Positions 2,931 through 60,314 of a stretch of DNA of 64,000 bases are shown piece by piece (within the stretch, counting starts at the first letter, position 1; every line of letters begins with the position of its first letter). A model generated the notes under the pieces. The model was given only the letters and a program-made list of their open reading frames with translations. It did no database searches and was not told the origin of the DNA. The stretch lies in NCBI GenBank assembly GCA_032718475.1, contig JAUCBJ010008330.1, positions 1-64,000 on the forward strand, given 5' to 3'. The translations under genes were made by a program, and so were the position numbers. This stretch comes from Nemertoderma westbladi. Taxonomy: Eukaryota > Animalia > Xenacoelomorpha.

Positions 2931-2969
<39 letters not shown>

Positions 2970-3970
2970 GGATCGGCATGCTGCAAAGCAGCTGCATTAT
3001 ATAAAGAATGCTGTGCCAGCTTGTCCAGAAAATTGCGCCGCCACAACTCCTTACCACCCATGACATTTGCTAGATCATTTGCATCTTCTAGGACAGTGTC
3101 CTTTAAGATGCGTCTCAAGAAAATCATGGGCTACCCAGCCCATCATGCTTATTCACTCCATGAGACTGCCAAATCACGGCGAAAGCAATGTCCTGCAAAG
3201 CGGTGGCGGCTTTGTTCTAGTGTCAAGCTTGGGGGAACCTATGAGACACCTCCAATGTTTTATAGTGTCTGTTTTGAGAGGTGTGCATTGCACTTGACAC
3301 AGTGAACCCGGCGTAGCATTCTTATGAATGTGCCATCCAGAGATTTGGTATCCTCAGCAATTAGAGCCCAGCATGGACTCCCATAGAGGAGTACTGGAAC
3401 TATTGCTGCTCTAAATAATCGGACCTTAAGATTCCTATGAATTTTATGTGACTTCCAAATACGGGCAAGCCTATTCAAGGCTGCCCATGCCTTTCCCTTA
3501 CGTATTAGAAGAAATGACTTCCGGATCCATTATCCAAGGTAATAGAAGTCATCCACATGCTCAAGCATAACATCCTTTGAGCTTATGCTCATCCGGACAG
3601 AGACTTGTTGAGGACTTTCAAGGTTAACTGTCAAAATGTTGGTTTTTTGGTGTTAATAAATAGACCAACACTAGAAGCAGCCTGTTAGCGCTGTGTGCCT
3701 AGAGAACTTTTTAATTAATTTTAATAGGCGCTGATAAATAAATATATTATTATTATTATTATTATTATGAGCTGAGGAGCCGTTGGGCCCACTCTGGTGA
3801 TTCTGAGAGTACTCGTAAGTCATCAGCAAAGTCTAGATCAGTTAGGTACTTGGCAGGATTTCCTCGACTTCTGGAGCCAGTAGGTGGAGTTATCATCACC
3901 CCATCATCATTATGATGATCTAAGGGCATGCGTAGAACATAGTCAACCACAATTATGAACAAGAATGGTG
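2914..3970 (-). mobile_element. 5'-truncated, degenerate RTE-clade LINE with (TAG)n 3' tail
   Basis: Fragments translate to LTDLDFADD and VLLYGSPCWAL; near-identical to the RTE at 12949-14606; (TAC)n tract at 2914-2970 on plus. Confidence 0.9.
3687..3766 (+). mobile_element. Short 3'-end fragment of a LINE/SINE inserted in the RTE
   Basis: 80 bp absent from the homologous RTE copies; ends GCGCTGATAAATAAA..(ATT)n. Confidence 0.5.
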
Positions 3971-4538
3971 TTAAAGCTTCTGTACCCTAAAATGCATATT
4001 TTTGTAGCGAGAAGCTTAAGTCTACTCCAAACTCTATAAAATGTCATATCTATACGTCCAATTCTGTAGGATGTATGTATATATCCATACGCCCCGAAGT
4101 GTTCGATTTCAGTACACATCAGTCAGTAAGTTACACATCTGGGTTATAACAGTCAATGGAATCTATTGTTTATTTTCATAGCTGTGGGCTAATCTTATTT
4201 GGAGCAAATGGCAATGCCGCATGGCGACTTTCTATTGGAAGTTGACCAGCAACTGGCTGTGCCGTCATGATTCTGAGAATTCCTTACCCTCGATCAGCTA
4301 GGCAAGATTCATTCTGCAGTTTTGCTGATAGTAAAAGGATGTTTTTGCCGTTAACATCTAGGCCTACCGCATGGCTGTATACTCACAATGGCTGAAACTG
4401 CATATGGCTGACTATGCTTAATATACTAAATAACTGAATTGCACTGATTTACTGCTTGTTTATAATATTTGTTGGTTAACTTGTGCAAATATTGTGATGA
4501 TATATGGAGATAGCACTGAATTAATTACTCTTACTGTA

Positions 4539-5342: not shown

Positions 5343-6496
5343 TGTAAAAGCTTTTGCAGACATGCGGACAAGTCATTTTTCCCGCAATGCGCAGTGTAGG
5401 TGCTTTTGCGGACATAACAATTCATTTTTTCCGCAATGCGCAGAATACTCTAAAATAGCCCTAAATGTATTCAACGCCGTGACGGGAAGGAATCAGAGCC
5501 CCGATGACGAAATCTATCAGCTGATTCTCTGTGGACATGGAATTTTTCTTTGTTCTTCCTAGTCAGCCAATCAGAGCGATTTTCCCCCTTATGTCGAACA
5601 GAGGCCTATGGAAACCCGTGCAATTGTTTACCTTTTTCTGAGCCTCAGAACCGGCTTGGAATCTTCTGTACTTCTGTTGTGGAAGTTTCAGACTTTGGCC
5701 TAAACATCAAATGGCTTTGATTACAAGAACGTAGAACTATTAACAATTCAACTACCTTACTTGGATACACATTTCATAACTGCATTATGTAACACATACT
5801 GACTGTTCACCACATTATTTTACTTCTGTCATTAATTGTTGTTATGTTAATGGATATTGCTGTTATATTTGGAGAATACCGATAAATAATCATAAAACCC
5901 CCAATCTTCTTGATTACTGAAGGTGAGAGGAACAGGTTTACCGGTAGCAACTGCGACTTACATTATAGTGTTTTTGTGTGAATTAAATGCTATTTCATAA
6001 TCCCTACATGTGTCAGTTGCGATCTTCCTTATATATGATCAAATTCAGTGACGGTCGGCAGATCAGTGCGAAGTAGTGTGAAGTAGTGTGAAGTCGTGTG
6101 AAGTAGTGTGAAGGTTAATAAAGCATCTCCTAAAGAATGCGCTTTTTACGAAACTCTGTGGCCATCTAGTTGTGATTAGCATAAGTCATAACTCTGTTTT
6201 TATACTTAAAGCGCCACGTCCTAAAGGAACTGTTAATATTTCCCCGAAAGTAAATATATTGTCAGAGATTATATATTAACGATCAATCCAATAATACAGT
6301 AGGTCTACACTGCAATCACTATCAAAGCATCCGAATCCAGTCTCCCTTAACTGTGGGTGAAAGGTCACGCACAGACTGGCTTCGGCTGATGTAACTTCAG
6401 TACATTAAATAATTGATATAGGCTAAAGTCGATTTATAAACAAAAGGACAACTAAAATTGGCAGGTTAAACTGCTAAAGGTCTAAAAGCGCGAATA
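5343..6496 (+). repeat. 5' LTR of copy D (~1154 bp)
   Basis: Starts TGTAAAAG; ends GCGCGAATA (mutated from GCGCGAACA); CCAAT box near 5566. Confidence 0.88.
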
Positions 6497-8253
6497 TTAA
6501 TAGTTTTAAACTCTTGATTGCACAGTAGACAATAAATATATTTGTCTAATGTTCTGGTAAGAACAATAATAGATTTTATAGTTTCTTTAATGCACTGTAG
6601 GCAATAAAGTCGAATGTACTGGTCGGACGGTAAACTGTAGGCCTAACTACCTAACCACCCGAACCGGTACTTACCGGTACTAGTATTATTTCGATTGTGA
6701 TATATTGTATATTGGTAGGCTATTTAAGAGAGTAGGGACTGTACACCCCTTATTTCTTTTAGAGCTTATTTAAAACTGTCAATTTTATTTATCTGTAAGT
6801 GTAATATTGAGCAGAAGGCGGGTAAGCCTGCTCAGATTGTATAAATAATTTGTAGGCCGGATTGTTGTCTAACTGTTGTTAGGTCTGAAGCGATTGCAGT
6901 GTGTGTAGAGTGTCTGTCCGAAAAAGTGCTAGTTAGGAAGGTGGGGGCATCCAGTGTTGTAAGGTAAATCCCCCCCGAAAGAATAAGTCATACTACTCGG
7001 TTAGAACGCCTACTAACTAACCATTTCGGAGTCTGCATATACTGTAGTTTATTTAGGCTTGACAGTAGTCTGCCAGCATTTGGTCTGTATTTTATTTAAA
7101 TAGTCTGCACGGGTAGCGTAATATTTATTATTCAGTGTCTATGGAAGTATTCCAACCACCAACTCCCCAAGTTTATTCCTACATTAATTGTGCTTGTTAT
7201 ACATACCAATATAGTTAAATTAACCCCTGTACTACATCAGGGCTGCTTGGCGTAGGTAAAGACTAGTGATTTTGTGCTCCGGTCACTCCAGCAGATGATA
7301 CCGTGGTTCTTTTGGCTGTTCAAGTATATTTAACTGCTGGTTATTTGTTTTATAAGTACTTGTACCTAATTTAGGGTTTAGCGTACAGTGCTTTCCTAAA
7401 GTAATTTAGTGTGTAGGCAGTATATTTGTGTTATAACGTGGTTAATAGGCACGTTAGCTCTGGTTGGCTTCGGTAATTAACCTCTAGGTAAGGACACTCC
7501 GGGTACATAACGTAGTACTTATAGAGCTAAGACTATAAGTCGTCAGACGGTGGTATTTTCTTATCTGGACAACGCAACTTACTTACTACTACTTTATTGT
7601 TTTTCCAATACTGTAGTTTCCTGTCAGTTTGTAAGATCCAGAAATTCTAACTCCTTGTTAGACTGGTTTGTAGATTTCTTGTAAAATTACCCTATAAATT
7701 GTACGTGTAACTTTTAGTGTTTATTTAGAGATTGTAATCTCAAACTGTAATTGTAAGTAATTTGTAGTGATAAGTAACTTAGTAAAGAAGAATTATCTGT
7801 GTAGTGACTCCTTAACCAGAAATAATAACATTTATTTCAAACATTGTCAAAACCCATTGTACGGGTATATATATATTTATAAATCAACTCTCAATCAGAT
7901 TTATAAAATAGTAGGCCTGTTATACATCAATTAGGTCTTAATATCAGTTGGATTACTGCTTAATAACAGTAATAAAGTAAAGGGAAGTAACCCTAAAATT
8001 AAGAAATTCAGTTATTATAAAATAATTGACATTACCGGTATTTACGGTAGGCTTATTATATATATTTATATAAATTTAGGCTGAAATTATATACCGGTAT
8101 TCTGTGACTAATCCTAGTCTATAATAATACTTATATATACTATGGGTGTATACCGGTATTTACGGTAGGCTTATTATATATATTTATATAAATTTAGGCT
8201 GAAATTATATACCGGTATTCTGTGACTAATCCTAGTCTATAATAATACTTATA

Positions 8254-9706
8254 CAGGGTGATCCAAAAGTTTCTGACCCGGGGGTCAGAAACTTTCGGAC
8301 CGTGGCTATAATTATAGTTTTGTAGTTCTAGTAAACTAGCAGAGTAGACAGTTGTAGGTGCACAGTTGTAGGTTATGGAAGTTTAAGTAGCCTACAGCAG
8401 TACTCTGCACTTTTGGTTCACAATTTTGGTCATTGCTTCAGCTCATAACAACAGTATGGCACCAACTAATCGTGAGAAAAAGAGGATTGAAATTCAAACC
8501 TTATTTTTACGTGGAGATGGGATAAAGAAAATTTCTAGGGATCTCAAAATTTCGGTTAACACTGTTAGAAAGTGGGTCAGAACAAATTCTGGAACAATTA
8601 AAGACTCTAAACGCTCTGGAAGACCAACGAAAATGACACCTGATTCAAAGAAACAGATAACAAAAATGACTAAGGATCAGTTCATTGGCATTCGGAAAGT
8701 GACGAAGAAGATCAACTTCAGCGATTTTTACAAGAATAGAGGAAAGTCCGTTGGTGCCACTACAGTTCGGAGGATGGTTAAATCAACTGAGTGGGGTAAA
8801 ACAGCATATAAACAGACAGTTAAACCAATGCTGTCGGCAAAGAATGTCAATGATCGCTTGACATTTGCGAACAAGATGATCAAAGATGGCTTTGCTAACA
8901 ATTCTCGTCCTGCACGAATGAAGCTCAGCCATATTTTGTTTAGAGATGAGTCCCCAGTTGTTCTCAACCCTAAGCCAAACAAGCAGAATCGCAGAATTCG
9001 AACAAGCGATCCTGGGACGATACCAGCCATTGTGGTTCCTAAGTTTCCACTGAAAATTATGGTGGCTGGAGGAATAAGCCGATATGGCCGGTCTGAACTT
9101 TACATTGTCCCACAGAACACAACTGTGGATGGAGCACTATATAGGGAACAGATATTGCCAGTTTATCATAGAGCTTTGGATGATAAGAAGTTATTTCCTC
9201 GCTCTGAGTTAAGGATTCTTCAACAGGATGGTGCCAAACCGCATACAGCTAAACAATCCATTGCTCAGATTAAGGCGAAGTTCGGAAATTTTGGAGTGGT
9301 ATGGGAAACTTGGCCGGGCAATTCTCCTGACCTTAATCCCATAGAGCATGTCTGGGCAGAGCTCCAGGATTCGATATTCATTGAACCTAGACCACGTAAT
9401 CGTCAGCAGCTCATTGATAGAGTTAAGGAGACATGGGTTGGTCTGGATCAGAACTGGCTTTCAGATCTTGCTCTGTCATTTCCACGCCGGATCCATGAGG
9501 TGATCAAGGAGAATGGAAGGAACACCAAGTATTAGCTAATTGATGATGGACTCTAGGCCCAGGTGGTATCATTTGTAACTTTTTTGATAGAAAAATATAT
9601 GCCCTTTGGTTGTGTGAATTGGAAATATATACAATTTTATTCGTTTATCCAAAACATTACTTTGAGTAAGATATACTGGGGGGTCAGAAACTTTCGGATC
9701 ACCCTG
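8254..9706 (+). mobile_element. Intact IS630/Tc1/mariner-superfamily DNA transposon (1453 bp)
   Basis: 26-bp TIRs CAGGGTGATCC(A/G)AAAGTTTCTGACCC; TA duplication at 8252-8253 and 9707-9708; sits in the leader tandem repeat of copy D. Confidence 0.97.
8456..9535 (+). CDS. Tc1-like DDE transposase, 359 aa, DD38E spacing
   Basis: N-terminal HTH with RSGRP; catalytic motifs LFRDES, QQDGAKPH, WPGNSPDLNPIEHVW; uninterrupted ORF from ATG 8456. Confidence 0.95.
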   Translation: MAPTNREKKRIEIQTLFLRGDGIKKISRDLKISVNTVRKWVRTNSGTIKDSKRSGRPTKMTPDSKKQITKMTKDQFIGIRKVTKKINFSDFYKNRGKSVGATTVRRMVKSTEWGKTAYKQTVKPMLSAKNVNDRLTFANKMIKDGFANNSRPARMKLSHILFRDESPVVLNPKPNKQNRRIRTSDPGTIPAIVVPKFPLKIMVAGGISRYGRSELYIVPQNTTVDGALYREQILPVYHRALDDKKLFPRSELRILQQDGAKPHTAKQSIAQIKAKFGNFGVVWETWPGNSPDLNPIEHVWAELQDSIFIEPRPRNRQQLIDRVKETWVGLDQNWLSDLALSFPRRIHEVIKENGRNTKY

Positions 9707-12700
9707 TATATACTATAGGTGTATACCGGTATTTACGGTAGGCTTATTATATATATTTATATAAATTTAGGCTGAAATTATATACCGGTATTCTGTGACT
9801 AATCCTAGTCTGTAATAATACTTATATATACTATAGGTATATACCGGTATTTATGGTAGGCTTATTATATATATTTATATAAATTTAGGCTGAAATTATA
9901 TACCGGTATTCTGTGACTAATCCTAGTCTGTAACAATACTTATATATATACTATAAGTGTATACCGGTATTTTAATATCACACATATATCACGTTACATT
10001 GAGTAACGGTATCGGTAATCAATTACTAGGCTTACAGTTGATACTGAATTAATAGACTTGCTTTAACTGTCGTTATAGTAGTAGGCATTCAACTGTAAAA
10101 TAAATCATGGCTGACACAAAGCAAACCCTGTCAGATAGTTTCCTAGAAAGAACAGTCTGTGACTCAGATAAGAGTATAGAACATCTGAGACCGAAGTCCA
10201 AGTCCCCTCCTACTGTAAGAAAGGTCATCCCTACAGTAGTAGTATCAGACCCTAGGCTAGTAAAGCACCATAGGTCTATTATAGGCACTAGGGCTCAAGT
10301 TAAGCGGGACCTAGAAGCAGCTGTTAAACAGCAGCAGCACCCGAGCCGAGAAATATTACTCAACAGCACGATAACTTTAGTAGTTCAGATACTTTAGAGT
10401 TGACGTCCGAGATCGGAGCAAGGATGGCAGAAGCGGTTTATCCAGACCCACTTCTAATTCTTCCTGGAGCCTTACTCACTAGAGTGTTGATCGCTGTGGA
10501 AGAACATCAAATTGATTGGGCAAGAAGTAAGCGATCGACCAGGGACAGTTATGCAGGATACACGATGGAGGAATTAAGGTCTATTGTCGAGGCGCAATGG
10601 AACTTCCCCGGACCCGGACTCCCGTTTAACTTATCGGAAGCTGCCTGGGAGGACTTATATAGGATGGGAGTAGTAAGGGACACTCGAGATCCAGCTGTGT
10701 GGAAGAGGTCAGCAGCAGGATATGTCCAGGGATTCTTCAGCTCTTTGGAGCGATTAGAGGAACACCTGTTTCAACAACGTCAAGGACCTCAAGAGCAGGG
10801 AGAGCAGCTTTATCAAGTGCGAGAACGAATTTTACGGATCAGACTAATGCTTTCGGCCTTTGAGGAAGCCTCGAAGAGGAGCCAAGACACTTCATTGCAA
10901 GTGGCCATAAAAACTTGGTTCCAACGGGTGAGTCTTAAAGTCCAGGGAACGACACAATGGAAAGCTCAGCTAACCGAGCGCATGACCCACGGAGAATCAA
11001 CAGATGCTACCTTTTCTCAGGTGGAAGGCGAAGTTACATCCGAGAAACCTCAGAAGAAGGATGCTATTGACATCTATCTGTCGGACTATCAACGATTTAT
11101 AGGTGACAAAGAGTTAAGGAGACGGCTAGCTGGACTTCACCCTAATAGTGAGGCAGCCAAATTTGTGTTGGACTCGTTAGATGCGGAAATATTAGCCGCG
11201 GAACAGGCTAAATTTGATGAAAGCATCCTCATCGCTATGGACCAAGAAGAGCAGCTAAAGAAAAAGCAAATAGAAGACTGAAGGGCAGCGGTCGCGGCAG
11301 CATCTAAAAGGAAAATGGCAGAGGCTGAAAGAAAAGTGGCAGTGGTCGCGGCAGAATCTGAAAGGAAAGCTGCAGAGGCGGAAAGAAAAGCGGCAGCGGT
11401 CGCGGCAGAATCTGAAAGGAAAGTGGCAGAGACTGAAAGAAAGGCGGCAGCGGCAGCGGCAGAATCTGAAAGAAAAGCGGCAGTGGCTGAAGCAGAAAGA
11501 CGAGCATCTGAAGAGGCAACCCAACTAGAGTTGGAAATCTTCAAGCGAAGCAAGATTACTTAAATAAACAGAGAACAGCTACTCAGATGCAGCTGCTAAG
11601 TCGATCTACTCCCCGGAGACAGGGATTTACCGGGCGATACAACAGATTCTGAAGGTAGAGGAAATAAATCTCGTTCCAGCGGACGTAGAAGAATGCCACA
11701 CCGTCAGAAATTGCCTAATTTGCCTCCAGCTGTGAGAAGGCAACTAGCTAGTGTAGATTTAAGTAATCCTGAGCCTACAGACCAAATTATTAGAGTAGAA
11801 AGACTCCCTACTATAGTAGATGAGCCCGAAATAATTAGGCCTGTCATTGAAGTCACTCCAGTGCTAGAGACCCCTGTACTTATAGAACCTAACTCTAAAT
11901 TCCCTTTGCACAGTACTAAACTATCTGTGCCCAATAGACTAGCCCCTGAATCACTCCCGTTTCTGGACGCCGAGCAAGACATAAATGAATTGTCTCCCGT
12001 CGTCCCCACGCGTCACCCGGCTACCACGTTGGCAGCTCCCGCGGCAGCGGTTGAGTGGGTAGACAAGGGACGGCGGGGGATGGATCGCCTGCTCGGGCAG
12101 CTGGAAAAACATAAACTACGTTCTTCCCAGCAGGTCCGAGAGTTGGAAGGGACTGTTCAGCAGTTAAAGGGAACAGTAAGAGAGAGTAGGTTAGAGTTAC
12201 AAGAAGTACAACAGAGTATCGCTTTAGAGCGCGATAAATTAGTAAATATACAAATGGGTATACCACCACCCCCTGTAACAATGTGTCAACCTGTTAGGTC
12301 TGAAGTATTTCATGCACAAGGTGTGGAGCCTACACGCATATATACTGCTAGTGAAGTAGAAACTCCTATAGTAAACCCTATCAAGGGTAATTATAAACCC
12401 TTTGATAATGATATTCCATACAGATCTGATCATAATCCGTGAAATCTATATACCGATAACTCGATATTAAATAATACGGTGGCTCAAGAAAATTTTACAC
12501 GTCAAATGGCTAGAACTGAAGCCCGTCAAGTGGTAAAGGTAGGAGAGGTCGTCAAGTTCAATGGAGATGAGATGAAATGGTTACCTTTTAATGAATATTA
12601 TAAAGATAACATACAGAACTCTGTACTATCCAACAGAGAGAAACTTAGATTCCTCATCGAGTGCTTGGAAGGATCTCCCAAGTTAATTGCGTTAAAGTTT

Positions 12701-12948: not shown

Positions 12949-14606
12949 ACTACTAGGATCGGCATGCTGCATTGCAGCTGCATTTTTAAGAATGCTGTGC
13001 CGGCTTGTCAACAAAATTGCACCGCCACAACTCCCTATCACCCATGACATTTGCTAGATCATCCGCATCTTTAAGGCCAGTGTCCTTTAAGATGCGTCTC
13101 AAGAAAGTCATGGGCTGTCCACCATGCTTATTCACTCCATGAGGCTGCCAAAGTACAAGATTATGCACTGGCTGGTCCTCACGGCGAAAGCAATGTCCTG
13201 CAAAGCGGAGGCGATTTTGTTCTAGTGTCAAGCTTGGGGGAACCAATGAGACACCTCCAATGTTATATAGTGTCTGGTTGGAGATGTGTGCATATTACTT
13301 GACACAATGAACCCGGCGTAGCATTCTTGTGAATGTGCCATCCAGAGATTTGGTGTCCTCAGCAGTTAGAGCCCAGCATGGACTCCCGTAGAGGAGTACT
13401 GGAACTACTGCTGCTCTAAATAATCGGACCTTAAGTTTCCGATTAATTCTCGGTGACTTCCAAATCCTGGAAAGCCTATTCAAGGCTGCCCATGCCTTTC
13501 CCTTACGTATTCGAAGGTCCTCACCTGACTTCCGGATCCATGATCCCAGGTAACAAAAGTCATCGACATGCTCAAGCATACCATCCTTTGAGCTTATGCT
13601 CATCCGATCAGAGACTTGCTGAGGACTTTCAAAGTTAACTGTCAGAATTTTGGTCTTTCTGGAGTTAATAAAAAGACCAACACTAGAAGCAGCATGTTCT
13701 AATGAGCTGAGGAGCCGTTGGGCTCCCTCTAATGATTCTGAGAGTACTCCTAAGTCATCAGCAAAGTCTAGATCAGTTAGGTACTTGGCAGGATTTCTTC
13801 GACTTCTGGAGCCAGTAGGTGGAGTTATCATCACCCCATCATCATTATGATGATCTAAGGACATGCGTAGAACATAGTCAACCACAATAATGAATAAGAA
13901 TGGTGCAAGTGTGTCTCCTTGGAGGACGCCCCATAACACTTCAAATGGTTCTGTGTCACCGTCAACAGTAGACACAAATGTTGTCGAACCATCGTATACT
14001 GATCTGATTGCTGCTATAATTTCATCAGGAATCCCATATAATGAAAGTATGCTGAACATACGTGAGCGAGAGACTGAATCAAAGGCCTTGAAGAAGTCAA
14101 CAAAGATAACAGCCAGATGCCTGTCTTTCTTTTTTGATAATTCTTCAATTATCCTTCTAAGTGCCAAAATGGGCTCCATGGTCCCACGACCTTTACGAAA
14201 CCCATTCTGATTTCCACGGAGCAGTCTCTCAATGGGATCCCTGATGCGATTTAATAGAATCCTATTGTATAGCTTTGCAGCAATCGAGATCAATGAGATT
14301 CCCCGAAAAGAACCATAGAGTGTTAGGTTGCCCTTCTTGGGAACTGGCACCAACTTATTTGTTTTCATTTCTTGGGGGACTCTTGTTGTACGGTACATGT
14401 CTACTATGATGGGATAGATGAGCTTTAAACACTCAGGTATTTTAAAGACCTCAGGGGGAACACCATCTACTCCACTGGCACGATTGGTCTTAATGCTCTT
14501 TGCAGCAGCCTTCACTTCTGCAAAGGAGATATCGCCAATGGGAATATCTGGGAGTACAGACTCAGACACCTTTACTTCTATAAAGTTATCAGGCAATCTA
14601 TATACG
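12949..14606 (-). mobile_element. 5'-truncated RTE-clade LINE inserted antisense in gag of D
   Basis: 11-bp TSD CTCTATATGAT (12938-12948, 14607-14617); short TAG tail; RT ORF. Confidence 0.95.
13295..14596 (-). pseudogene. RTE reverse transcriptase domain (433-aa open stretch, frameshifted C-terminus, endonuclease missing)
   Basis: FRGISL, QNGFR, FVDFFKAFDSV, GVLQGDTLAPFLF and DFADD motifs; continues in another frame (LRFAGHCFR). Confidence 0.93.
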
Positions 14607-15149
14607 CTCTATATGATGGACCAGCAACAAAGGGACCCTACCATGGCTGATCTCATGTCATTCTATAATACTGTAGTACCCCTATACAAACAGCACAGGG
14701 CTTACCGGATTATTAACAAACTGTAAAGTTTAATGTTCCGTTGTTTTAATATTCGTTAATTAATATTTTAATATTTCGTTAATATTCTGCTCTACTGTTA
14801 CTGTATAATAGTACCGGTTGTATGCAAATAATATAATAGTAAATAAAAAATAAATTATAAATTATATTTTCTTCAATCTTAAACCTTTTTTATCTTCAAT
14901 ACGTGTTTTCTAACCTGAACTTAATTTATTTTATTTTTATTTTACATGCGGCATGCGGCGTGTAGATTTTAGTTGCTTGTCAATTTTATTTTATTACCGG
15001 TACCGGTAAATAAATACATATAAAATGTAATAATATATTCTAAAGTATTTACCTGTATTTATCTTTCAATCAATCTTTGTATATTATTCAGAAATTTGAT
15101 TATTAAATATCCAACTTTATTCGATATTTATAAATATAATCTTGCAAAT

Positions 15150-18620: not shown

Positions 18621-20213
18621 TTAGTCTTTCTTGCGCGGATGGCGTTTAAGCAGTTTTTTAAAGCTGGCCAGAGTCTTTTTCTCTTTGGGGCGAGCCACTT
18701 TACAAGGAGGGCTATAACTCCTGGGTGAAGGGTGCAACATGATTGCATCAGAGGGTGTAGGATTATGGTCGGTGTATCCGCCAGTCAAAGTGCCGGGTTG
18801 ATTGACATCAACGTCGGGGGAGAGGGGTCTAACGGCCTTGAGAGCGCGTTTTAGGACAGCCGCTCTTACGGGTCCTTTACGAGTGGTCTGAACGAGAGCC
18901 GTGGGTGGACCATAGGCAGTCAGAAACTTCCTGGGTTTAATGGTTCTTTCTAACTCGCGTTCGCGGGCTCGGTATTCGTAAGGCCGTCGATATACTTCCT
19001 GTAACTCGGGGTGTGAGTTAACAAATAAGTCTCCATAGTCCGGATCCTGACGGATAAAATTGATTAGGTTATATGAATGAAGGTCGCTAGGATTAACACT
19101 CCTGAGAAATTTGCGTACGAATTTGGTTGAAATACATTCTCCGACGCGCTTCAGTAGTTCGTAACTCGATATGCGTGATTTCTGTTCGACAGAAGCGAAT
19201 AGATAAGGATGGAACGCATAAACTCCTTCGTAAGCGCGTCCAGGATAATAACGATGGCGCGAATCACAATGTAAATCAGCGTTCGCTTCCCAAGCTCTGA
19301 TGTAACGTAGTGTGATCATTTCATCTACGCTTTCCAAATCGTGATTAAAAGGGCAATCGAAACTGGCGTGTCCCTTTAGTTGACAATGGTGACATTGAGT
19401 CATAAATTGAGGGCAAACCGCAAAAATGTGCAAGTTATTGAGTCTGCAATACGCGCAATAAATTTCCATCGCCGGTTGTTCGTGGAAATAGGAACAGCGG
19501 ACGTTTGTGTCCTTCAGTTTGTTGGTTGGGTCTAGGGCATTCGTCACAATAACACCAAAGACGTACGTCCTGTAGAGGAAACGCGGGTGATCGTTCTCCA
19601 GCTTCGCAATATTCTTCCATTTGTTCAAAACTATCCGGGATAACAGGTAGTGGACGATCGGCGGTAAGATACATCATAGTGAAATAGAGCCGTTTGAGTT
19701 CTACCATGGGGTCATGATGTATACCTTGAGGATATAGAGTCTCGAGGTTCTGCTGACTGGCGATGTTGAGATAGGTTTCTCCCAAAATTCCAGGTAGTCG
19801 TTGAAGTCGATGCGTTTATCCGGTTCATCAACGTTTTCTCTTTCCAGTCTGTTACGAATAGAATTTTCGTGTTCTATTCTAGGTTTATCGTTACGACTCC
19901 GCTGGGTATGATATTTAAATAGAACCATTTCCCTTTCGGTGTCTACATCGTCCGTATCATGTAAATCGATAGGATGGCCGGTAGTTAAGAAGTCCATACA
20001 CGTACCATTACGATGCATATAGCGAGCGGTGAATTTTCGATAGTCCAATTCACGCGTAAGTTGCTCTTGGGACATCGGCGGTTCGATATAACGACCATCG
20101 TCCTCCATAATGGTTGGATCGGCTTCACCGCGTATCAAGCTATCCACAAATGCTTGTAAAGGTAGAGTATATCGCTCCCTGATACCAAGATCATCTTCTA
20201 TCAACTCCGTCAT
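18621..20213 (-). pseudogene. Extra ORF3 of copy B (env position), frameshifted, with two CCHC zinc knuckles
   Basis: Overlapping frames 20213-19701, 19785-19435 and 19628-18621; CAYCRLNNLHIFAVC and CHHCQLKGHASFDC; homologue in copy C. Confidence 0.8.
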
Positions 20214-30297: not shown

Positions 30298-32520
30298 ACT
30301 TAGCTATACAGTTGAATGCTTACTGCTATAGTTACAGTTAAAGCAAGTCTAGTAATTCAGTATTGACCGTAATTTATTACAGTATATTAGAATACCGGTA
30401 TACACTTATAGTATATATAAGTATGGTAGACTAGGTTTGTCGCAGAATACCGGTATATAAATTTTAGCACAAATATATATACATATAATAGGCCTATCGT
30501 GAATACCGGTATGCAGTTTACACTTATAGTATATATAAGTATAATTATGAACTAGAATTAATTACAGAATACCGGTATGTTTTCAGCCCAAATTTATAGA
30601 AATAAATATAATAAGCCTATGGTAAATACCGGTATGTCATTTATTTTAGAATAATTGAATTTCTGAAGTTTTAGGGTTACTTGGTTACTTTAACTTACTT
30701 TATTACCGTTATTTAAGCAGTAGCCCAACTGATATTGAGACCTAATTGTTGTATGGCAGGCCTACTATTTATAAATCGTTTGAGTTGATTTATAATATAT
30801 ATATACCCGTTTAAAATGGGTTTTGTCAATATTTGAAATAAATGTTATTATTTCTGGGGGGAGTCACTATACAGAAGCTGTGCGCTCTCAGTGAAGTGCT
30901 ACTTATTGGACACTAAAACAGATAATTCTAATTTACCTAAGTTACTTAATACTACAAATTACTTACGATACGGGTGAGATTAATTCTCTAATTAAACACA
31001 ACAAAAATATTACGTACGAAATTTTAGGGTAATTTTACAGGGAAACTACAAACCAGTCTAACAAAGGGTTAGAACTTCTGGTTATTACAACAGACAGGGT
31101 ACTACGGTATTTGAAAATAATAAGTAGTAGTAAATATATTGTGCTGTCCAGATAGGAAAATACCACCGTCTGACGACCTATAGCCGTATCGCTATAGGTA
31201 CTACATTATGTATCATGGAGTGTTCCTACCTGGAAGTTAATTACCGCGGACTACCAGATCCAACATGCCTATTAACCACTTTACAACACAATACACTGCC
31301 CGCACACTAATTACTTTCGGAAAGCACTGTACACCAAACCCTAAATTAGGTACAAGTACTTATTAAAAACAGATAACCAGCAGATAAATATACTTGAACA
31401 GTTAAAAGAACCACGGCATCTGCTGGAGTGACTGGAGCACAAAGTCACCAGTCTTTACCTACGCCAAGCAGCCCGTGTAGTACCGGGGTTAATTTAACTA
31501 TAACGGTATGTGTAACAAGCACAATTACTGTAGGAATAAACTTGGGGACATGAATGTTGCGAATAATCGCATAAACTCTGAATAATAAATATTACGCTAC
31601 CCGTACAGAATACTCAAACAAAATACAAACCAAACGCTGGCAGACTACTACCAAGCCTAAATAAACTACAGTATGTGCAGATTCCGAAATGGTTAGTTAG
31701 TATGCGTTCTAACACGGTAGTACGACTTATTCTTTAGGAGGGGATTGACCTTACAGCTCTGGCTGCCCCAACTTACTAACTGGCACTTTATCAGACAAAC
31801 TCTACACACGCAGCAATCTCTTCAGACCTAATAATAGCTAGACAACAATCCAGCCTACAAAATATCTGAGTAATAACTATTACGGTACCTGAACAGACCA
31901 CACAAACAAACACAGACTAAAACGCTGGCAGACTACTATCAAGCCTAAATAAACTACAGTATGTGCAGATTCCAAAATGGTTAGTTAGTATGCGTTCTAA
32001 CACGGTAGTACGACTTATTCTTTAAGAGGGGATTGACCTTACAGCTCTGGCTGCCCCAACTTACTAACTGGCACTTTATCGGACAAACTCCACACACGCC
32101 GCAATCTCTCCAGACCCAACAACAGTCAGACAACAGTCCAGCCTACAATTATCTGAACAATCTGAGCAGACTTACACGTCTTCAGCTCAATATTAACTTA
32201 CATGTAAATAAAACCGACAGAAATAAGTAAAATCTCAATAAAAAACCAGGGCTGCAGTCCCTGATTAAATACTAAGACCTACCGGTATACAATAATCAAA
32301 ATCGAATAATACTAATGTACTTATACTGGAAGTACCGGTTAGGACAGTTGGGCCTACAGACCTACAGCAGTACCGGTTCAGACAGTTAGGCCTACGGACC
32401 TACAGCAGTACCGGTTCTGGCAGTTGGGCCTACGGACCTACAGCAGTACCGGTTCAGGTTTACCGGTCGACCGGTACTTTCAACTTTATTGCTTACTGCA
32501 ATAAAGATAATAACTGTTAT

Positions 32521-39160: not shown

Positions 39161-40345
39161 CCTGCACCGGTGCTCACTACAGACTGTGGAGATAGCTACC
39201 GGCAAGAGGTGCTTGGTATATAGTTTTAGTCAGTAATGGCATACAGCAACTACTGACTTTATGATTTCATCAAGTTCATCAAACCAGGCTGACGACTCAG
39301 CTGTTTAATTAATTGCAGCTGGAGTGGATAAATTATTAATTAATTTGGGGAACTTTACTAATTAGTAAAATCGTTAATTAGTTCGATTCAAAAGATTTTA
39401 GAGTAATTATCATTTGTAAAATAGTAAACCGCTTTGATACACCTTGTGAATAAGGATTTGGGGGACGGGGGGGCAAAGCCCCCCCGCCAATTAGGTAATT
39501 AAGTAATTAGTTAATTACTAATTAACGGTAGGAGATACGGCATCGGCGCCAGAGACTTTTTTGTGTAGAATAAAATTCCGAACAACTTTGTGATGTTACG
39601 TTTTTTCATAGCTCTTAGTGTTTTCGAGTTACGACGCTAATTAGTTTTCGGCTAATTAGTACTAATTAACAGTAATAGGAGGGCCATAGCGATGACTGAA
39701 CTTTTTTTAGATCTTACCGAGATGAACAAAAAAAAACACCGTTGCTAGGGGAAAAACCAAATACTTTTCGAGATAAATCAATTAGAAATCTTTAATCGCT
39801 AATTACTAATTAATTAATTAACAGATTTTTTCCACAAAAACTCCTAGCTATCGCGCTAGGGCCATCTACCAGATCGCGCAAACAGAATCGTTCTAGCTTT
39901 CGCCGTTCTCCTGGAAAAATCCTTTAAAAATCGACCTAAAAAAGATCAAAGCAAAGTGCCTACTTGATAGGTAGGTCTCTAGACTGTATAAATTATGAGG
40001 TTTGAAGTTGGTGTTGATGGTGGGTTCTATGTTCCGTTAAATAGGCTGCAGTATCTATGCCTCATAATTCTCTGTCGAGCCTTTGGCTCTCCGGTTGCAG
40101 CCAGACCATCGAGACATGAATAATATCGAGAGAGAAAAAAGCGTGTTGAAAAATATATCGAGAGTAAAAATAATGAGACTAAAAATAATGAGAGTAAACA
40201 TATCGCGAGTAAAAATATTGTGAGTAAAATCAGCTATAACTTTTGGAATAAAAACACTAGCTTCAATGAACGGTGATTTATTTAAAAAAAATAAAGATTT
40301 TTAAAACTATAGTTTTTGTAAAAACACTTGCTATCACCAATAAAA

Positions 40346-41109
40346 CTAGCTACCAACAATAAAACTAGCCACCAAGGAAAACACTAGCTACCTTCAAATA
40401 CACAAGCTACCAACAATAATACTAGCTACCAAGGAAAACACTAGCTACCTTCAAATACACAAGCTACCAACAATGATACTAGCTACCAAGGAAAACACTA
40501 GCTACCTTCAAATACACTAGCTACCAACAATAATAATAGCTACCAAGGAAAGCCCTAGCTACCTTCAATTACACTAGCCACCAACAATAATACTAGCTAC
40601 CAAGGAAAACCCTAGCTGCCTTCAATTACACTAGCTACCAAGAATAATACTAGCCACCAAGGAAAGCCCTAGCTACCTTCAATTACACTAGCTACCAACA
40701 ATAATACTAGCTACCAAGGAAAACACTAGCTACCTTCAATTACACTAGCTACCAACAATAATACTAACTACCAAGGAAAAGCCTTACCTTCAAATACACT
40801 TAAGCTATCAATAATAATACTAGCCACCAAGGAAAACCCTAGCTACCTTCAAATACACTAGCTACCAACAATAATACTAGCTACCAAGGAAAACCCTAGC
40901 TACCTTCAAATACACTAGCTACCCACAATAATACTAGCTACCAAGGAAAACCCTAGCTACCTTCAAATACACTAGCTACCAACAATAATACTAGCTACCA
41001 AGAAAAGCCCTAGCTACCTTCAAACACACTATCTACCAACAATAATACTAGCTACCAAGGAAAACCCTAGCTACCTTCAATTACACTAGCTACCAAGAAT
41101 AATACTAGC
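40346..41109. repeat. 57-bp tandem satellite (3 x 19-bp subunits starting CTAGCTACC), left part
   Basis: Unit CTAGCTACCAACAATAATA-CTAGCTACCAAGGAAAACC-CTAGCTACCTTCAATTACA; resumes in register at 56994. Confidence 0.95.
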
Positions 41110-42246
41110 TGTTCGCGCTTTCAGACCTTTAGCAGTTTAACCTGCCAAATTAGGATGTCTTCTAGATAATAGATAGTCTTTAGCCTACGACAAATATTTG
41201 ATACACTACATTAGCCGAAACCAGTCCATGCGCGATCATTCACCCGCTGGATATACCCGGGAGACTGGATTCGGAAGCCTAATCGTATTGCGGGATAGAC
41301 CTACTGTATTATTCGACTGATCGTAATATATATAATCTCTGACAATATTATTCACTTTCGGGAAATATTAACAGTTCCTTTAGGACGTGGCGCTCTAAAT
41401 ATATAAACAGAGTTATGACTTAAACCAGACGCAACGGGATGGCTATAGATTCACGTATATGGCGCATTCTTTAGGAGATGCTTCGTTATCAATCACAATC
41501 ATACACAATACTGCACAATGCTGCACACTAATCTGCCGACCTTCACTAATTTTAGTCACATATAAGGAGAACAACAGACAATACGTGTAGGGCCTATAAA
41601 ATAGCATTAGATTCACTTCAAACCACTTAATGTAAGTCGCAATCGTTATATGTATCCGGTCTCTCTAACCTTTAGTATATCAAGAAGATTGGGGTGTCTG
41701 ATTGTTTATCAGTATTCCAAATATAATGTTCCATCAACAAATATAATGAATAGCCGACAGCAAAAGCAGTAATGTTAAGGTATGAATGATTAAGTTATGG
41801 ATAGATAACGGATATACGTTCTATAATTAAGCCTACTAATGTTAAGCTAAAGACTGAAACACGGAGGTTCCACGCCGGTGTTGTAGGCTGTGGAAAAATC
41901 ACATACTGACTCACTTCCCTAGTTTCTATATACCATCTCCAACACAGAGGCAAAAAACGCTCTGATTGGTCGACCGAACAAAGAGAGAACAAAGAACAAA
42001 GAGATGTTCTACGTGGCAATATCAGCTGTTAGCCGTCGTCATGGTATCTACACTGTTTCAAGAGGATCCGGCTTATTGCGTCATAGAATTGCTAATCATG
42101 TCCGCTAAAGTACACATACAGAAGAAATGGCTTTTATGTCCTCTAAAACAACAATACAGTAAGGACACGGCCTTTTATGCCGGTTAAACCAACTACAGAG
42201 TACTTTACGGGGAACATAACCGGCTAATTACGCAAAAGCCTTTACA
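41110..42246 (-). repeat. 3' LTR of copy C
   Basis: Direct repeat of 55857-56993 with about 5 substitutions counted by eye. Confidence 0.97.
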
Positions 42247-51400: not shown

Positions 51401-53712
51401 GGGTTCACTATAGGAGTTTCTACTTCGCTAGCAGTATATATGCGTGTAGGCTCCACACCTTGCGCATGAGATACTTCAGACCTAACAGGTTGACACATTG
51501 TTACCGGGGGTGGTGGTATACCCTTTTGTAAATTTACTAATTTATCGCGTTCTAGCGCGATACTTTGCTGCACTTCTTGCAACTCTAACCTACTTTCCTT
51601 TACGGTTCCCTTTAACTGTTGAACAGTCCCTTCTAACTCTCGGACCTGTTGGGAGGAGCGCACTCGATTCTCCTCCATCTTTCCGAGGAGAATATCCATC
51701 CCCCGCCGTCTCTCGTCTACCCAATCAACCGCCGAAGCGGGATCCGCCAACGACGTAGCGGGCAGACGAGGGACTACGGGCGATATATCCTTTATATTTC
51801 GCTCGGAGTCCAGGACCGACACTGTTTCAGGGGCTGTTCCTATAGGCACAGATAATTTGGTGCTGTGTAAAGGGAATTTAAAGGTAGGTTCTGGGAGTAC
51901 AGGTGTCTCTATCACCGAAGGGGTGATTTCAAGAACAGGCCTAATTATTTCAGGCTCATCTACTATAGTAGGGAGTCTTTCTATTTTAATTATTTGGTCT
52001 GTGGGTTCTGTACTACCTAAGTTTGTGTTATTTAGTTGCCTTCTAACAGCTAGAGGCAAATCAGGCAATTTCTGATGGTGGGACATTCTTTTACGTCTAC
52101 TTAGACGAGATCTATTTCCTCCGCCTTCAGGATCGGTGGTATCGCCTTCCTCAGATGATGTATAACCTTGTCTTTTGGGAGTAGATCGATTCATCATCTG
52201 CATATTACTAGCTGTTAACTGTTTATTAAAGTTATCTTGCCTCTCTTGAAGATTTTCCAATTCTAGTTGGGCAGTCTCTTCAGACGCCTTTCGTTCTGCT
52301 TCTGCCACTGCAGCTGCCAAAGCCGCTTTTCTTTCTGCTTCTGCCACTGCAGCTGCCAAGGCCGCTTTTCTTTCTACCTCTGCCACTGCAGCCTTTCTTT
52401 CTGCTTCTGCCACTGCTGCTGCCGCTGCTTTTCTTTCTGCTTCTGCCACTGCAGCTGCCAAGGCCGCTTTTCTTTCTGCCTCTGCCACTGCCGCTTTTCT
52501 TTCTGCTTCTGCCACTGCTGCTGCCGCTGCTGCTATCTTTCTGTCTTCTATACGTTTTTTCTTTACTTGTTCTTCTTGAACCTTAGTGAGGCGGATGCTT
52601 TCATCAAATTTAGCTTGGTTCGCAGCTCTCATATCCACATCGATGGCGTCCAACACACGCTGGGCTGCTTCACTATTAGGGCTAAGTCCCTCTAGCCTTC
52701 TCCTCAGCTCTTCATCACCTACAAAACGTTGATAGTCCGACAGATAGATATCAATAGCATCCCTCTTATGCGGTTTCTCTGCCGTCGCTTCACTCTCCAC
52801 TTGGGAAAATGTAGCATCTGTTGATTCTCCATGGGTTGAGCGCTCATCTAGCTGGGCTTTCCACTGAGCCGTTCCTTGAACCTGGAGACTCACCCTTTGA
52901 AACCAAGTCTTTACAGCAACTTGCAACGACGTGTCTTGTCTTCTTTTAGAAGCCTCCTCAAAGGCTGATAAGATTAGCCTGATTCGTAGAATTCTTTCTC
53001 TAACTTGATAAAGCAGTTGTCCCTGCTCTTGAGGTCCTTGGGGTTGTTGAAACAGTTGTTTTTCTACTCGCTCCATAGAGCTTACGAATCCCTGTACTTA
53101 TCCGGCTGCGGACCTCTTCCACACAGCTGGATCGACGGTTTCCTTGGTTACTCCCATCCTGTGTATATCTTCCCAGGCAGCTTCTGATAAATCAAACGGG
53201 AGTCCGGGTCCGGGGAAGTTCCATTGCGACTCGACAATAGACTTCAGTTCTTCCCTTGTATATCCCGCATAACTATCTTTAGTCGATCGCTTAATTCTCG
53301 CCCAATCTATCTGGTGTTCTTCCACCGCAATCAATAACCTAGTGAGTATGGCTGCAGGAAGGATGAGAAGGGGATCCGAATAAACCGCATTCGTCATCTT
53401 TGCTCCGCGCTCGGGTGTCAGCTCTACAGTATCCTCACTACTGGAGCTGTCGGGCCGTTGAGAAATAAGTTCTTGGCTCGCGGGTTGTTGTTGTTCCGCT
53501 GCTTCTTGGTCCCGCTTGACCTGAGCTCGAGTGCCTATGATAGACCTACGGTGTTGGACCAGCCTAGGTTCTGATATTACTACTGGGGGAATGATCTTTC
53601 TTACAGTAGGAGGTGAGTTGAACTTCGGTCCTACACGTTCCACACTCCTGTCTGGGTCACATATGGTTGTATCTAGGAGACTGTCTGACAGGTTTTGCTT
53701 TGTGTCAGACAT
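45492..53712 (-). pseudogene. gag-pol polyprotein of copy C: one ancestral ORF now broken by two frameshifts and one stop
   Basis: Pieces 53712-53098, 53076-49018, 48947-45915 and 45893-45492 carry gag knuckles, LLDSGS, YMDD, RNase H and integrase motifs. Confidence 0.96.
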
Positions 53713-55839
53713 GTTGGTTTGTACAGTTGAATGCCTACTGCTATATTACAGTTTAAGCAAGTCTAGTAATTCAGTATCACTGTTAGCCTAGTAATTAATT
53801 ACCGATACTGCTACTCAGTGTAGCGTGATATCTATATAATATATTAGAATACCGGTATGCTTATAGTATATATATAAGTATTATTACAGACTAGAATTAA
53901 TTACAGAATACCGGTATAATTTCAGCCTAAATTTATAGAAATAAATATAATAAGCCTATGGTAAATACCGGTATGTCAATTATTTTAAATAATTGAATTT
54001 CTGAATTTTAAGGGTTACTTGGTTACTTTAACTTACTTTATTACCGTTATTTGAGCAGTAGTCCAACTGATATTGAGACCTAATTGTTGTATGGCAGGCC
54101 TACTTATTTATAAATCGTTTGAGTTGATTTATAATATATATATATACCCGTTTAATGGGTTTTGTCAATATTTGAAATAAATGTTATTATTTCTGGGGGA
54201 GCCACTACACAGAAGCTGTGCGCTCTCAGTGGAGTGCTACTTGTTGGACACTAAAACAAATAATTCTAATTTACCTAAGTTACTTAATACTATAAATTAC
54301 GTACAATTCGGGTTGAGATTACAATCTCTAAATAAACACAAAAAAATTACAAATACACAAATACGAATTTTTTAGGGTAATTTTACAAGAAGTCTACTAA
54401 CCAGCCTAACAAAGGGTTAGAATATCTGGTTATTACAACGGACAGAGTACTACGGTATTTGAAAATAATAAGTAGTAGAAAATATACTGCGTTGTCCAGA
54501 TAGAAAAATACCACCGTCTGACGACTTATAGCCGTATCCCTATAAGTACTACGTTATGTATCACGGAGTGTTCCTACCTAGAAGTTAATTACCGCGGTCT
54601 ACCAGAACCAACGTGCCTATTAACCACTTTACAACACAAATATACTGCTTACACACTAATCACCTTCGGAAAGCACTGTACACTAAACCTTAAATTAGGT
54701 ACTAGTACTTGTACAACAAATAATCAGTAGTTAAAAATACTTGAACAGCTAAAAGAACCACGGTATCTGCCGGAGTGACCAAAGCACAAAATCTCCAGTC
54801 TTTACCTACGCCGAGCAGCCCTGATGTAGTACCGGGGTTAGTTTAACTGTAACGGTATATATAACAAGCACAATTACTATAGGAATAAACTTGGGGATAT
54901 GAATGTTGCGAATAATCGCATAAACTCTGAATAATAAATATTACGCTACGCGCACAGACTACTCAAACAAAATGCAGACCAAATACTGACAGACTACTAT
55001 CAAGCCTAAACAAACTACGGTATATGCAGACTCCGAAATGGTTAGTTAGTATGCGTTCTAACCTAGTAGTACGACTTATTCTTTCAGAGGGGGTTTACCT
55101 CACAGCACTGGAAGCCCCTACGTTCCCAACTGGCACTTTATCGGACATACACTCTACACACACCGAAATTTCCTCAGACCTAAGAACAGCCAGACAACTA
55201 TCCAGCCTACAAATTATCTAAATAAGAATTATACGCTACCTGTACAGACTACACAAACAAAGTACAGACCAAACGATGGCAGACTACTATCAAGCCTAAA
55301 TAAACTACAGTATATGCAGACTCCGAAATGATTAGTTAGTATGCGTTCTAACCTAGTAGTACGACTTATTCTTTCAAAGGGGGTTTACCTCACAGCACTT
55401 GAAGCCCCTACGTTCCTAACTAGCACTTTATCGGACAGATGCTCTACACACACTGCAATCCGTTCAGACTTAACAACAGTTAGACAACAGTCCAGCCTAC
55501 AAATTATCTGTACAATCTGAGCAGGCTTACACGCCTTCTGCTCAATATTGGTCTATAAATAAATAAAACTTGACAGAAATAAGTAAAATCTCAATAAAAA
55601 ACCAGGGCGGCCGTCCCTGATTAATTATTAAGGCCTACCGGTATATAATTATCAAAATCGAATAATACTGCTGTACCTGTACTGCTGTAGGTACCGGTCC
55701 GGGTGGTTAGGTAGTCAGGCCTACTGGGTACCGGTTGCCGGTACTTCAGCTTTATTGCCTACTGCAATACAGAAGCTATATCCGTTATTGTTCTTACCAG
55801 AACAATATTAAACTGTATTTATTGCCTACCCTGCAATCC

Positions 55840-55856
55840 GAACGTATATCCGTTAT
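55840..55856 (-). other. Non-tRNA primer-binding site of copy C, complementary to LTR 56552-56568
   Basis: 17-nt exact inverted match abutting the LTR end; equivalents at 1739-1750 (A), 6497-6508 (D) and 32510-32520 (B). Confidence 0.8.
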
Positions 55857-56993: not shown

Positions 56994-57232
56994 CTAGCCA
57001 CCAAGGAAAACCCTAGCTACCTTCAATTACACTAGCTACCAACAATAATACTAGCTACCAAGGAAAAGCCTTACCTTCAATTACACTTAAGCTATCAATA
57101 ATAATACTAGCCACCAAGGAAAACCCTAGCTACCTTCAATTACACTAGCTACCAACAATAATACTAGCCACCAAGGAAAACCCTAGCTACCTTCAATTAC
57201 ACTAGCTACCAACAATAATACTAGCTTCCAGG
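56994..57232. repeat. 57-bp satellite, right part
   Basis: Same unit as 40346-41109. Confidence 0.95.
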
Positions 57233-57352
57233 AAAATTAATTTCACCCCCGATATTTCGTTGCAAGCGAAATTTTCACTCTCGATATTTTTACGGGTTTA
57301 TAGAGGTATCGATTAAACTAAATTAAGAGTAGGCCTATTAATAATAACTATT

Positions 57353-59968: not shown

Positions 59969-60310
59969 CATGCTCAAGCATAACATCCTTTGAGCTTATG
60001 CTCAACCGGCCAGAGACTTGCTGAGGACTTTCAAAGTTAACTGTCAAAATTTTGGTTTTTTGGTGTTAATAAAAAGACCAACACCAGAAGCAGCCTGTTC
60101 TATGTAATGAGCTGAGGAGCCGTTGGGCTCACTCTGGTGATTCTGAGAGTACTCGTAAGTCATCAGCAAAGTCTAGATCAGTTAGGTACTTGGCAGGATT
60201 TCCTCGACTTCTGGAGCCAGTAGGTGGAGTTACCATTACCCCATCATCATTATGATGATCTAAGGACATGCGTAGACCATAGTCAACAACAATTATGAAC
60301 AAGAATGGTG
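59969..60310 (-). mobile_element. RTE RT fragment, duplicate of ~3557-3970
   Basis: Near-identical sequence including the same truncation junction. Confidence 0.85.
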
Positions 60311-60314
60311 TTAA

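Follow-up and report, generated by a model that had tools for sequence, protein, structure and literature searches.

Priming of reverse transcription from an element's own RNA has, as far as the literature found extends, so far been described only for the Tf1/sushi branch of the Ty3/gypsy long terminal repeat (LTR) retrotransposons. Self-priming in Tf1 and its RNA structure are reportedly treated by Levin (1995, 1996) and by Lin and Levin (1997, 1998). Among retroviruses, the avian ones provide examples of stems between the unique 5' region (U5) and the leader (U5-leader stems) and of U5 inverted-repeat (U5-IR) stems. In Tf1 and Tf2 of S. pombe, in Tj1 and in the Tf1/sushi Ty3/gypsy elements, the primer-binding site (PBS) beside the 5' LTR complements the element's own upstream RNA, not a tRNA, and Tf1 self-priming needs RNA structure around the primer-PBS duplex (PMC4600332). 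In the retroviral PBS domain, U5 and the leader segment just 3' of the PBS form a stem that closes the domain, and a second helix lies beside the PBS (PMC4600332, PMC1865047). Here both arrangements are compared with a family of BEL/Pao (Belpaoviridae) LTR retrotransposons from Nemertoderma westbladi, four related members of which (A, B, C and D, with six LTRs) lie in the window analysed, the 64,000 nucleotides at positions 1-64,000 (forward strand) of contig JAUCBJ010008330.1 in assembly GCA_032718475.1; all positions below refer to this window. The stretch of interest, 5865-6496 (+), is the non-coding R-U5 (repeat and U5) of element D, making up the downstream two thirds of its LTR and terminating exactly at the LTR end. 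With modest confidence, the R-U5 RNA is read here as folding to hold, and then to present, the element's own likely primer for reverse transcription. The leader would accordingly unite self-priming like that of Tf1, a PBS domain like that of retroviruses and a helix that holds the primer, a reading that is somewhat favoured by the evidence below.

The first bases after each LTR complement a segment of the LTR that lies 695-769 nt upstream of the LTR end. This separation of primer and PBS, together with the superfamily, distinguishes the elements from the Tf1 group; because they are BEL/Pao, they are not Tf1/sushi members. In element D the PBS (6497-6508, +) is the complement of a likely self-primer at 5735-5743 (+), which matches over 9 nt exactly and over 12 nt from 5732 when one G-U pair is admitted. 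Homologous primers lie on the minus strand at 2486-2475 (A), 33300-33290 (B) and 56568-56552 (C), complementary to the bases after the LTR, with PBSs at 1750-1739, 32520-32510 and 55856-55840, respectively. The complements measure 12, 11, 17 and 9 nt in A to D and were matched by shuffled LTRs in 2, 6, 0 and 138 of 2000 trials; the primer duplex of Tf1 has 11 bp, compared with 9-17 bp in this family. For this and all other helices, scoring used the four distinct sequences (A-D), each pair in each sequence counting as one cell. The primer-PBS duplex has nine aligned pairs, four of them compensatory, and 100% of its cells are paired, compared with 22-54% for slid partners. In all four elements the primer is contiguous and changes together with the PBS, as expected of self-priming of the Tf1 type. 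None of the four PBSs starts with TGG and, in a comparison within the elements themselves, each is complementary to its own upstream RNA; no tRNA genes occur in the 64-kb window. Full-text literature searching found no report of self-priming in BEL/Pao, subscription journals lying outside its coverage. For annotation, self-priming of this kind would explain LTR elements that appear to be "without a PBS".

An earlier note on this DNA, made from the letters alone, had placed the stretch in U5 between the putative primer and the PBS, and this placing stands. The stretch is non-coding, and the likely self-primer co-varies with the PBS. The longest element-strand open reading frame (ORF) with an ATG in the homologous part has 43 codons in B and 54 in C. 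Coding is excluded by these short ORFs, by a 1-nt indel inside the most conserved block and by a 10-nt repeat of variable number. A short upstream ORF does begin at a conserved ATG within U5 (33047-32916, -, in B and 56354-56190, -, in C, A and D having homologous frames; 29-56 codons). It was rejected as a protein, as A and C differ at about half of the residues, B and D stop early, and the 10-nt repeats break the frame.

Compared with Tf1, the family has an extra U5 site, which pairs across the 3' end of the primer. This helix, P2, joins the last 6 nt of the primer and the following base (5738-5744, +) to 6114-6120 (+), termed here the PBS mimic since, element by element, it repeats the letters with which the PBS begins (5-6 nt). 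P2 has seven pairs, three compensatory; its length in A to D is 8, 10, 7 (+3) and 7 bp, respectively. When A, C and D are folded without constraints, P2 belongs to the minimum-energy structure, at pair probabilities of 0.66-0.95. With the primer columns held fixed, or the columns 5' of the primer, a partner this good was reached in 9 of 1000 shuffles each. Initiation in HIV-1 is tuned by a short leader motif, the primer activation signal, being free or base-paired, and P2 would be a comparable mask (PMC1865047). The likeness is an analogy only: the masked motif of HIV-1 lies on the template and contacts the tRNA, whereas here the primer itself would be masked (PMC1865047).

The conserved segment 5' of the primer furnishes two further helices with U5. 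P1 is formed by GACTTTGG (5691-5698, +) and CTAAAGTC (6423-6430, +), the latter at the third CTAAAG, and comprises eight pairs with all cells paired, one compensatory change (C) and two G-U variants. P1b, given in the letters of D, is formed by ACATCAA (5704-5710, +) and CTGATGT (6386-6392, +) and comprises seven pairs, one compensatory (D), with one unpaired cell. Taken jointly, P1, P1b and P2 amount to 22 pairs with five compensatory changes, and 97.7% of cells are paired, compared with 18-48% in slid controls. On four of five measures, only 0-2 of 500 shuffles do as well as the real alignment; the fifth, the count of further pair types, is reached by 113 of 500.

The second group of helices closes the region around the PBS. 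Their 5' arms, GTCTAC (6303-6308, +) and GCAATCA (6312-6318, +), are in U5, and their 3' arms, TGATTGC (6515-6521, +) and GTAGAC (6525-6530, +), are in the leader, outside the LTR and just 3' of the PBS. These U5-leader stems contain 13 pairs, four compensatory, with changes across lineages B, C and D. Two stacked stems with at least two compensatory pairs each occurred in 0 of 150 and 0 of 1500 column shuffles. When the domain is folded by itself, its minimum-energy structure is closed by these stems in all four elements. They enclose about 200 nt, in which lie the PBS, the LTR-end helix and two hairpins, one at 6331-6385 and a small one with GGCAG. The predicted layout is that of the retroviral U5-leader and U5-IR stems: leader sequence on the 3' side of the PBS is paired with U5, and on the 5' side another helix adjoins the PBS. 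The retroviral domain differs in using a tRNA primer and in its unrelated sequences, the domain here being of about 200 nt with a 55-nt hairpin. If the reading is right, a distant lineage that does not depend on tRNA shows the U5-leader architecture of retroviruses again. The G-U pairs of P1 and of stem 1 point to the sense-strand RNA as the form that pairs.

An unbiased scan of all possible stems in the four-sequence alignment returned five stems with a score of at least 4, against 0.42 expected from column shuffling, a procedure that takes no account of relatedness or of how variable columns cluster. One stem was then dropped. This fifth stem (columns 756-761/801-806 of the extended alignment) has its compensatory A in the 5' LTR of B and not in the 3' LTR. 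Also set aside were an isolated stem at 291-295/475-479 of the A2 alignment, of a type appearing about once per shuffle, and the long-range closing helices between spacer and U5 proposed by RNAalifold, which contain several broken pairs, fall in a poorly aligned part and are not claimed.

The helices listed in the earlier note were correct in all coordinates and letters; among them there is one compensatory pair only, the rest being invariant or G-U, so that this part of the structural evidence is thin, yet uncontradicted. The largest is the hairpin CCGAATCCAGTCT / AGACTGGCTTCGG (6331-6343/6373-6385, +), whose internal loop holds TCACGC (6365-6370). It has 12 pairs, none compensatory, with one G-U variant and two unpaired cells, and is found in the minimum-energy fold of B, C and D, being absent in A. 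Contig-depth data sample thousands of genomic copies in contigs of about 70-160 nt, so that the arms of a helix stay unlinked. Among these thousands of contigs the only variants of at least 5% in the hairpin arms are a C-to-T change that keeps a G-U pair and a terminal G-to-A; the base in the 1x1 loop is variable in 71-83% of depth. A smaller GCAG/CTGC hairpin (6461-6464/6471-6474, +) has four pairs and one G-U variant, in A. The four pairs of the GCAT/ATGC hairpin (6123-6126/6137-6140, +) never vary and are therefore uninformative either way; the long-range helix GACTTA/TAAGTC (5955-5960/6182-6187, +) likewise never varies. The compensatory change is in the U5-IR-like helix between GCGCGA at the LTR end (6488-6493, +), which is also part of the likely integrase end site, and the internal loop at 6365-6370. 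It reads TCGCGC/GCGCGA in A and C and ACGCGC/GCGCGT in B (32658-32653/32529-32524), with TCACGC in D, giving six pairs, one compensatory (B), and one unpaired cell (D). The LTR end does co-vary with the internal loop, as had been noted, through the single change in B and with a mismatch in D; the helix would lie beside the primer duplex.

Where the earlier note went too far was in seeing one structured RNA of about 650 nt. The fold of the whole stretch has a z of -1.02 in sense and +0.97 in antisense orientation (20 shuffles each). In 120-nt windows of all four elements, z is near 0 or positive over the first ~400 nt and mostly negative, from -0.7 to -3.7, over the last ~280 nt, where one window of C is at +0.2. 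Covariation in the first ~400 nt is confined to one 7-bp site, and overall it is limited to a few arms, so neither stability nor covariation runs along the length as it would in a single large structured RNA. Covariance-model searches of Rfam 15 gave no match at the gathering score in the whole window and so no known RNA family. Taken to E = 10 for two LTRs, they gave only sR33 (E 2.4, in U3, the unique 3' region) and TCL6_3 (E 2.1), which are regarded as chance. As judged from the sequences, the "large structured RNA" appears to shrink to a PBS-proximal domain and a few long-range contacts that bear on primer handling.

Conservation along the stretch is uneven. Between B and C, R-U5 differs at 18.3% of sites (0.183), compared with 19.6-27.5% at third codon positions of three ORFs, 14.1% in the 2.2-kb leader, 34.9% in U3 and 38.8% in the spacer 3' of the primer. 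The strong divergence of U3 across A-D is thus as had been claimed (0.349 for B and C). The accompanying description of the stretch as conserved stands relative to U3, and does not stand relative to the remainder of the element, which it roughly matches (third positions 0.196-0.275, leader 0.141). On average R-U5 changes slightly slower than near-neutral sites and has strongly constrained islands; the true outliers in divergence are U3, the spacer and the PBS. A conserved U5 beside a fast-changing U3 is by itself no sign of a structured RNA.

The most constrained island is the block of about 41 nt at 6211-6251 (+), whose near invariance, coordinates and letters in the earlier note are all upheld and lie far above chance. 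Its 24-nt core is found in six of six LTRs, with 0 expected. Among the four elements, 35 columns in a row are invariant, a run reached in 0 of 20,000 column shuffles (mean longest run 12). The core had 0 loci in the metagenome-contig and genome-contig collections searched, and the DNA contigs that match the block come from five runs, one organism and three studies, with no RNA run among the matches listed. A search for the complement of the block elsewhere in B and C gave 2 and 3 matches of 9 nt, an estimated chance level, and the block was not assigned a partner. Contig depth is highest on the block (bin 56105-56149, the top of the LTR), on the hairpin and at the LTR end. It falls 10-100x in parts of U3, in the spacer and across the PBS 3' half, the last being the region's lowest point. 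The hypervariable spacer between the primer and the conserved part (5745-5864, +; B vs C divergence 0.39) is of low depth. Length variation had been placed in a few spots including 10-bp repeats, and the tandem repeat is indeed present at 6065-6113 (+), with a period of 10 and 4.9 copies in D and a copy number that varies among elements. The four copies of CTAAAG are likewise present; their recurrence is not above chance, a 6-mer occurring at least four times in 622 of 2000 shuffles. No structure is assigned to the block or to the initial ~250 nt of the stretch, and both are likely to carry other cis signals, such as packaging, dimerisation, 3'-end formation or transcription control.

A sequence of events can be proposed from these pairings. 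The transcript would start upstream of the primer, perhaps at the initiator-like TCAGA/TCAGT near D 5690. Unlike in Tf1, the primer probably does not form the extreme 5' end of the transcript, since some 45 nt of conserved sequence precede it and show pairing with U5. At rest, the 3' end of the primer would be gripped by the PBS mimic through P2, and the 5' segment by P1 and P1b. Refolding, probably Gag-assisted, would then bring primer and PBS together within the domain that the U5-leader stems close, where the primer-PBS duplex would lie between the LTR-end helix and the inner leader stem. A cut by the element's RNase H at the primer end, as in Tf1, would give the 3'-OH, and this cut could fall within the P2 duplex, which spans the cut site. 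P1 and P1b, the U5-leader stems and the primer-PBS duplex mutually cross, which is the ground for reading two states. Folds that enforce P1, P1b and P2, the primer-PBS duplex or the U5-leader stems all lie 0-15 kcal/mol above the minimum. It is possible, and put forward tentatively, that the two states form a switch in which the mimic grips the primer 3' end across the future cut, the 5' segment is clamped to U5, and a cut inside the P2 duplex, or release from it, hands the primer to the true PBS ~700 nt away, within a U5-leader domain of retroviral type. Such a switch would, if true, be a mode of self-priming beyond that of Tf1, and the family offers a concrete, testable map for joining a primer and a PBS ~700 nt apart. 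The suggestion in the earlier note that the RNA positions or cleaves the primer survives in its first half, as predicted arms pair with the primer and flank the PBS; cleavage by a ribozyme finds no support.

Several results weigh against a primer-holding and primer-presenting fold. Three sets of pairings intersect, P1 and P1b with the U5-leader stems and the primer-PBS duplex with both, so no single nested fold can hold them all; two alternative states, or a pseudoknotted assembly, would have to be inferred. There are only four independent sequences, and each helix therefore rests on one to four compensatory events, to which the limits of column shuffling given above must be added. When full-length sequences are folded, the U5-leader stems are in the minimum-energy structure only of A and partly of C, and P1 only in that of D. 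P2 is absent from the minimum-energy fold of B, at a pair probability of 0.11, and the stretch as a whole is no more stable than its shuffles (z -1.02). The 3' arm of P1 lies in a region that is variable and of low contig depth genome-wide. Primer position 56557 is T in 87-95% of contig depth (among the 40 of 194 variant positions listed) and its PBS partner 55851 stays G in ~90% of depth, which makes this pair a G-U wobble and not a case of strict covariation. A primer fragment derived from the start site would be ~54 nt long, so that plus-strand synthesis would copy more than the PBS, a problem that the model leaves unsolved.

Other explanations account for parts of the evidence. The stretch may be an ordinary LTR tail, conserved by descent and bearing a few short signals (the integrase end, 3'-end formation, perhaps packaging), with helices that are chance complementarity in AT-rich sequence. 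A divergence of 0.183, near that of third codon positions (0.196-0.275), would suit such a tail, as would the whole-stretch z of -1.0, the appearance of single stems with two compensatory pairs about once per shuffle, the invariance of most helices of the earlier note and the chance-level recurrence of CTAAAG. It is nonetheless unlikely, because 0 of 1500 shuffles gave stacked stems, 9 of 1000 each gave a partner for the primer or for the segment 5' of it, and 0 of 20,000 gave an invariant run such as that of the block; five stems were found against 0.42 expected, and compensatory changes are spread over three lineages. The conserved islands, above all the block and the 10-bp repeats, may instead act as DNA. 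Some insect LTR elements have sites of this type in the 5' untranslated region, and host transcription-factor sites or an insulator downstream of the start would agree with an invariant block, in which primary sequence is what is kept, with a repeat number that varies among copies and with the missing stability signal in that part. The co-varying pairs are left unexplained, and as a full account it is improbable; for the parts left open it can hold alongside a primer-handling RNA.

Two further explanations bear on the pairing partners themselves. The PBS mimic could be a second, alternative or ancestral PBS, priming at which would yield copies with shorter LTRs, the match being kept by templated copying of the primer. 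The mimic has the same 5-6 letters as each element's PBS, and tandem duplication of the PBS unit is evident in C and D. Beyond the core, however, the surroundings of the mimic and of the PBS unit are dissimilar (their scores are reached by 455, 447, 82 and 343 of 500 shuffles), so the mimic was also rejected as a relic of a duplicated unit for want of extended similarity; P2 runs 1-5 nt beyond the primer end, which a PBS copy does not need, and the distal site is where each of the six LTRs here terminates. There is accordingly little to recommend this origin. Least credible of all is the proposal that the stretch is a self-cleaving ribozyme that frees the primer, or an internal ribosome entry site (IRES) for gag. 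What speaks for it is general: a primer needs a free end, and the 5' untranslated region is long. Known small self-cleaving ribozymes leave a 2',3'-cyclic phosphate and not the 3'-OH that priming needs. No Rfam family, including hammerhead, hepatitis delta virus (HDV)-like and twister ribozymes, matched at the gathering score, up to E = 10 there was one unrelated weak match per LTR, and most of the stretch has no stability signal. Retrozymes and retroelements with hammerhead or HDV-like ribozymes also carry functional folded RNA, and no ribozyme family matches here (PMC5680766, PMC7229834). The first long ORF starts ~2.2 kb past the LTR end (in B, LTR end at 32521 and ORF start at 30297), a distance that, by position only, argues against an IRES. 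Handling of a self-primer by R-U5 thus remains the preferred reading.

Domains and LTRs assign the elements to BEL/Pao. Element-strand ORFs, all on one strand between the LTRs, match Pfam DUF1759, Peptidase_A17, Integrase_H2C2 and DUF5641, as expected of this superfamily; RVT_1 was below threshold in the element ORFs scanned with Pfam. The best database relatives of the element Pol carry PF00078 together with PF05380, PF17921 and PF18701 at 33-42% identity. For Pol P0001 (45915-48947, -), the best among 845 database relatives are animal BEL/Pao polyproteins, at the same 33-42% identity, and the named relatives are chiefly from marine invertebrates and fish. No relative of the family's Pol was found among the viral contigs searched. 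The LTRs, of ~1.15-1.2 kb, have TG...CA termini and short target duplications, again typical of BEL/Pao, the end of D being decayed. In D the 5' LTR (5343-6496, +) starts with TG and ends in ..AATA (self-BLAST and alignment). The 5' LTR of A is at 2874-1751 (-), and A extends past the window edge. B and C are full-length, with 5-bp target duplications of CAGAA and GCTAG. The LTRs of B (33726-32521 and 18542-17337, -) are 99.25% identical and those of C (56993-55857 and ~42247-41110, -) 99.56% identical by self-BLAST. Element D is broken by a Tc1/mariner-like ORF and then truncated.

Other features of the window adjoin these elements. The ORF inserted in D (8426-9535, +) encodes a Tc1/mariner-type transposase with DDE_3 and HTH domains, and is flanked by ~220-nt repeats at 7915-8253 and 9606-10062. 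The truncation of D is adjoined by an RVT_1 ORF of a different retroelement (13295-14596, -), and repeats here are common to 2962-4012 and 60107-60352. Element C sits inside a 19/57-nt satellite array (40177-41110 and 56993-57236), with GCTAG as its target duplication. B has a 335-codon ORF without a Pfam match downstream of pol (18621-19628, -), and upstream of the 3' LTR (alignment positions 14201-15000) B and C are only 48-64% identical, a divergence like that of U3.

Upstream of the primer, D has a CCAAT box at 5568-5579, after which conservation resumes sharply at GTTTCAG(A/T)C (5685-5693), where the initiator-like TCAGA/TCAGT is located. If the initiator A is taken as +1, the P1 arm spans +2 to +9 and the primer ends at +54. 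By eye, motifs resembling splice sites occur near D 5922 (AAG|GTTAGAG, or in D itself GTGAGAG) and immediately 5' of the block (a pyrimidine-rich AAAG); they create no PBS complementarity.

The leader from the PBS to the first long ORF is ~2.2 kb (30298-32520 in B, 53077-55856 in C, 1-1750 in A) and is better conserved than U5, with 14% divergence between B and C. In B it has no element-strand ATG ORF of at least 40 codons. It includes ~290-nt tandem repeats at 31476-32060, 54825-55411 and 1073-1369. Directly after the LTR, a ~74-nt unit is duplicated in tandem in C (55770-55856, -) and D (6497-6600) and present once in A and B; the unit consists of ..GAACA, a PBS-like segment and TTGCA..GTAGGCAATAAA. 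The second copy in C pairs better with the U5 arm (8/8 pairs). Priming at a distal copy would lengthen U5, and this is a possible route by which the long U5 grew. About 45 nt past the PBS lies a palindrome or hairpin, TACCGG TCGA CCGGTA in B (32461-32476, -) and GTACCGG CAA CCGGTAC in C, with homologues in A and D, in a position that recalls the retroviral dimer-initiation hairpin.

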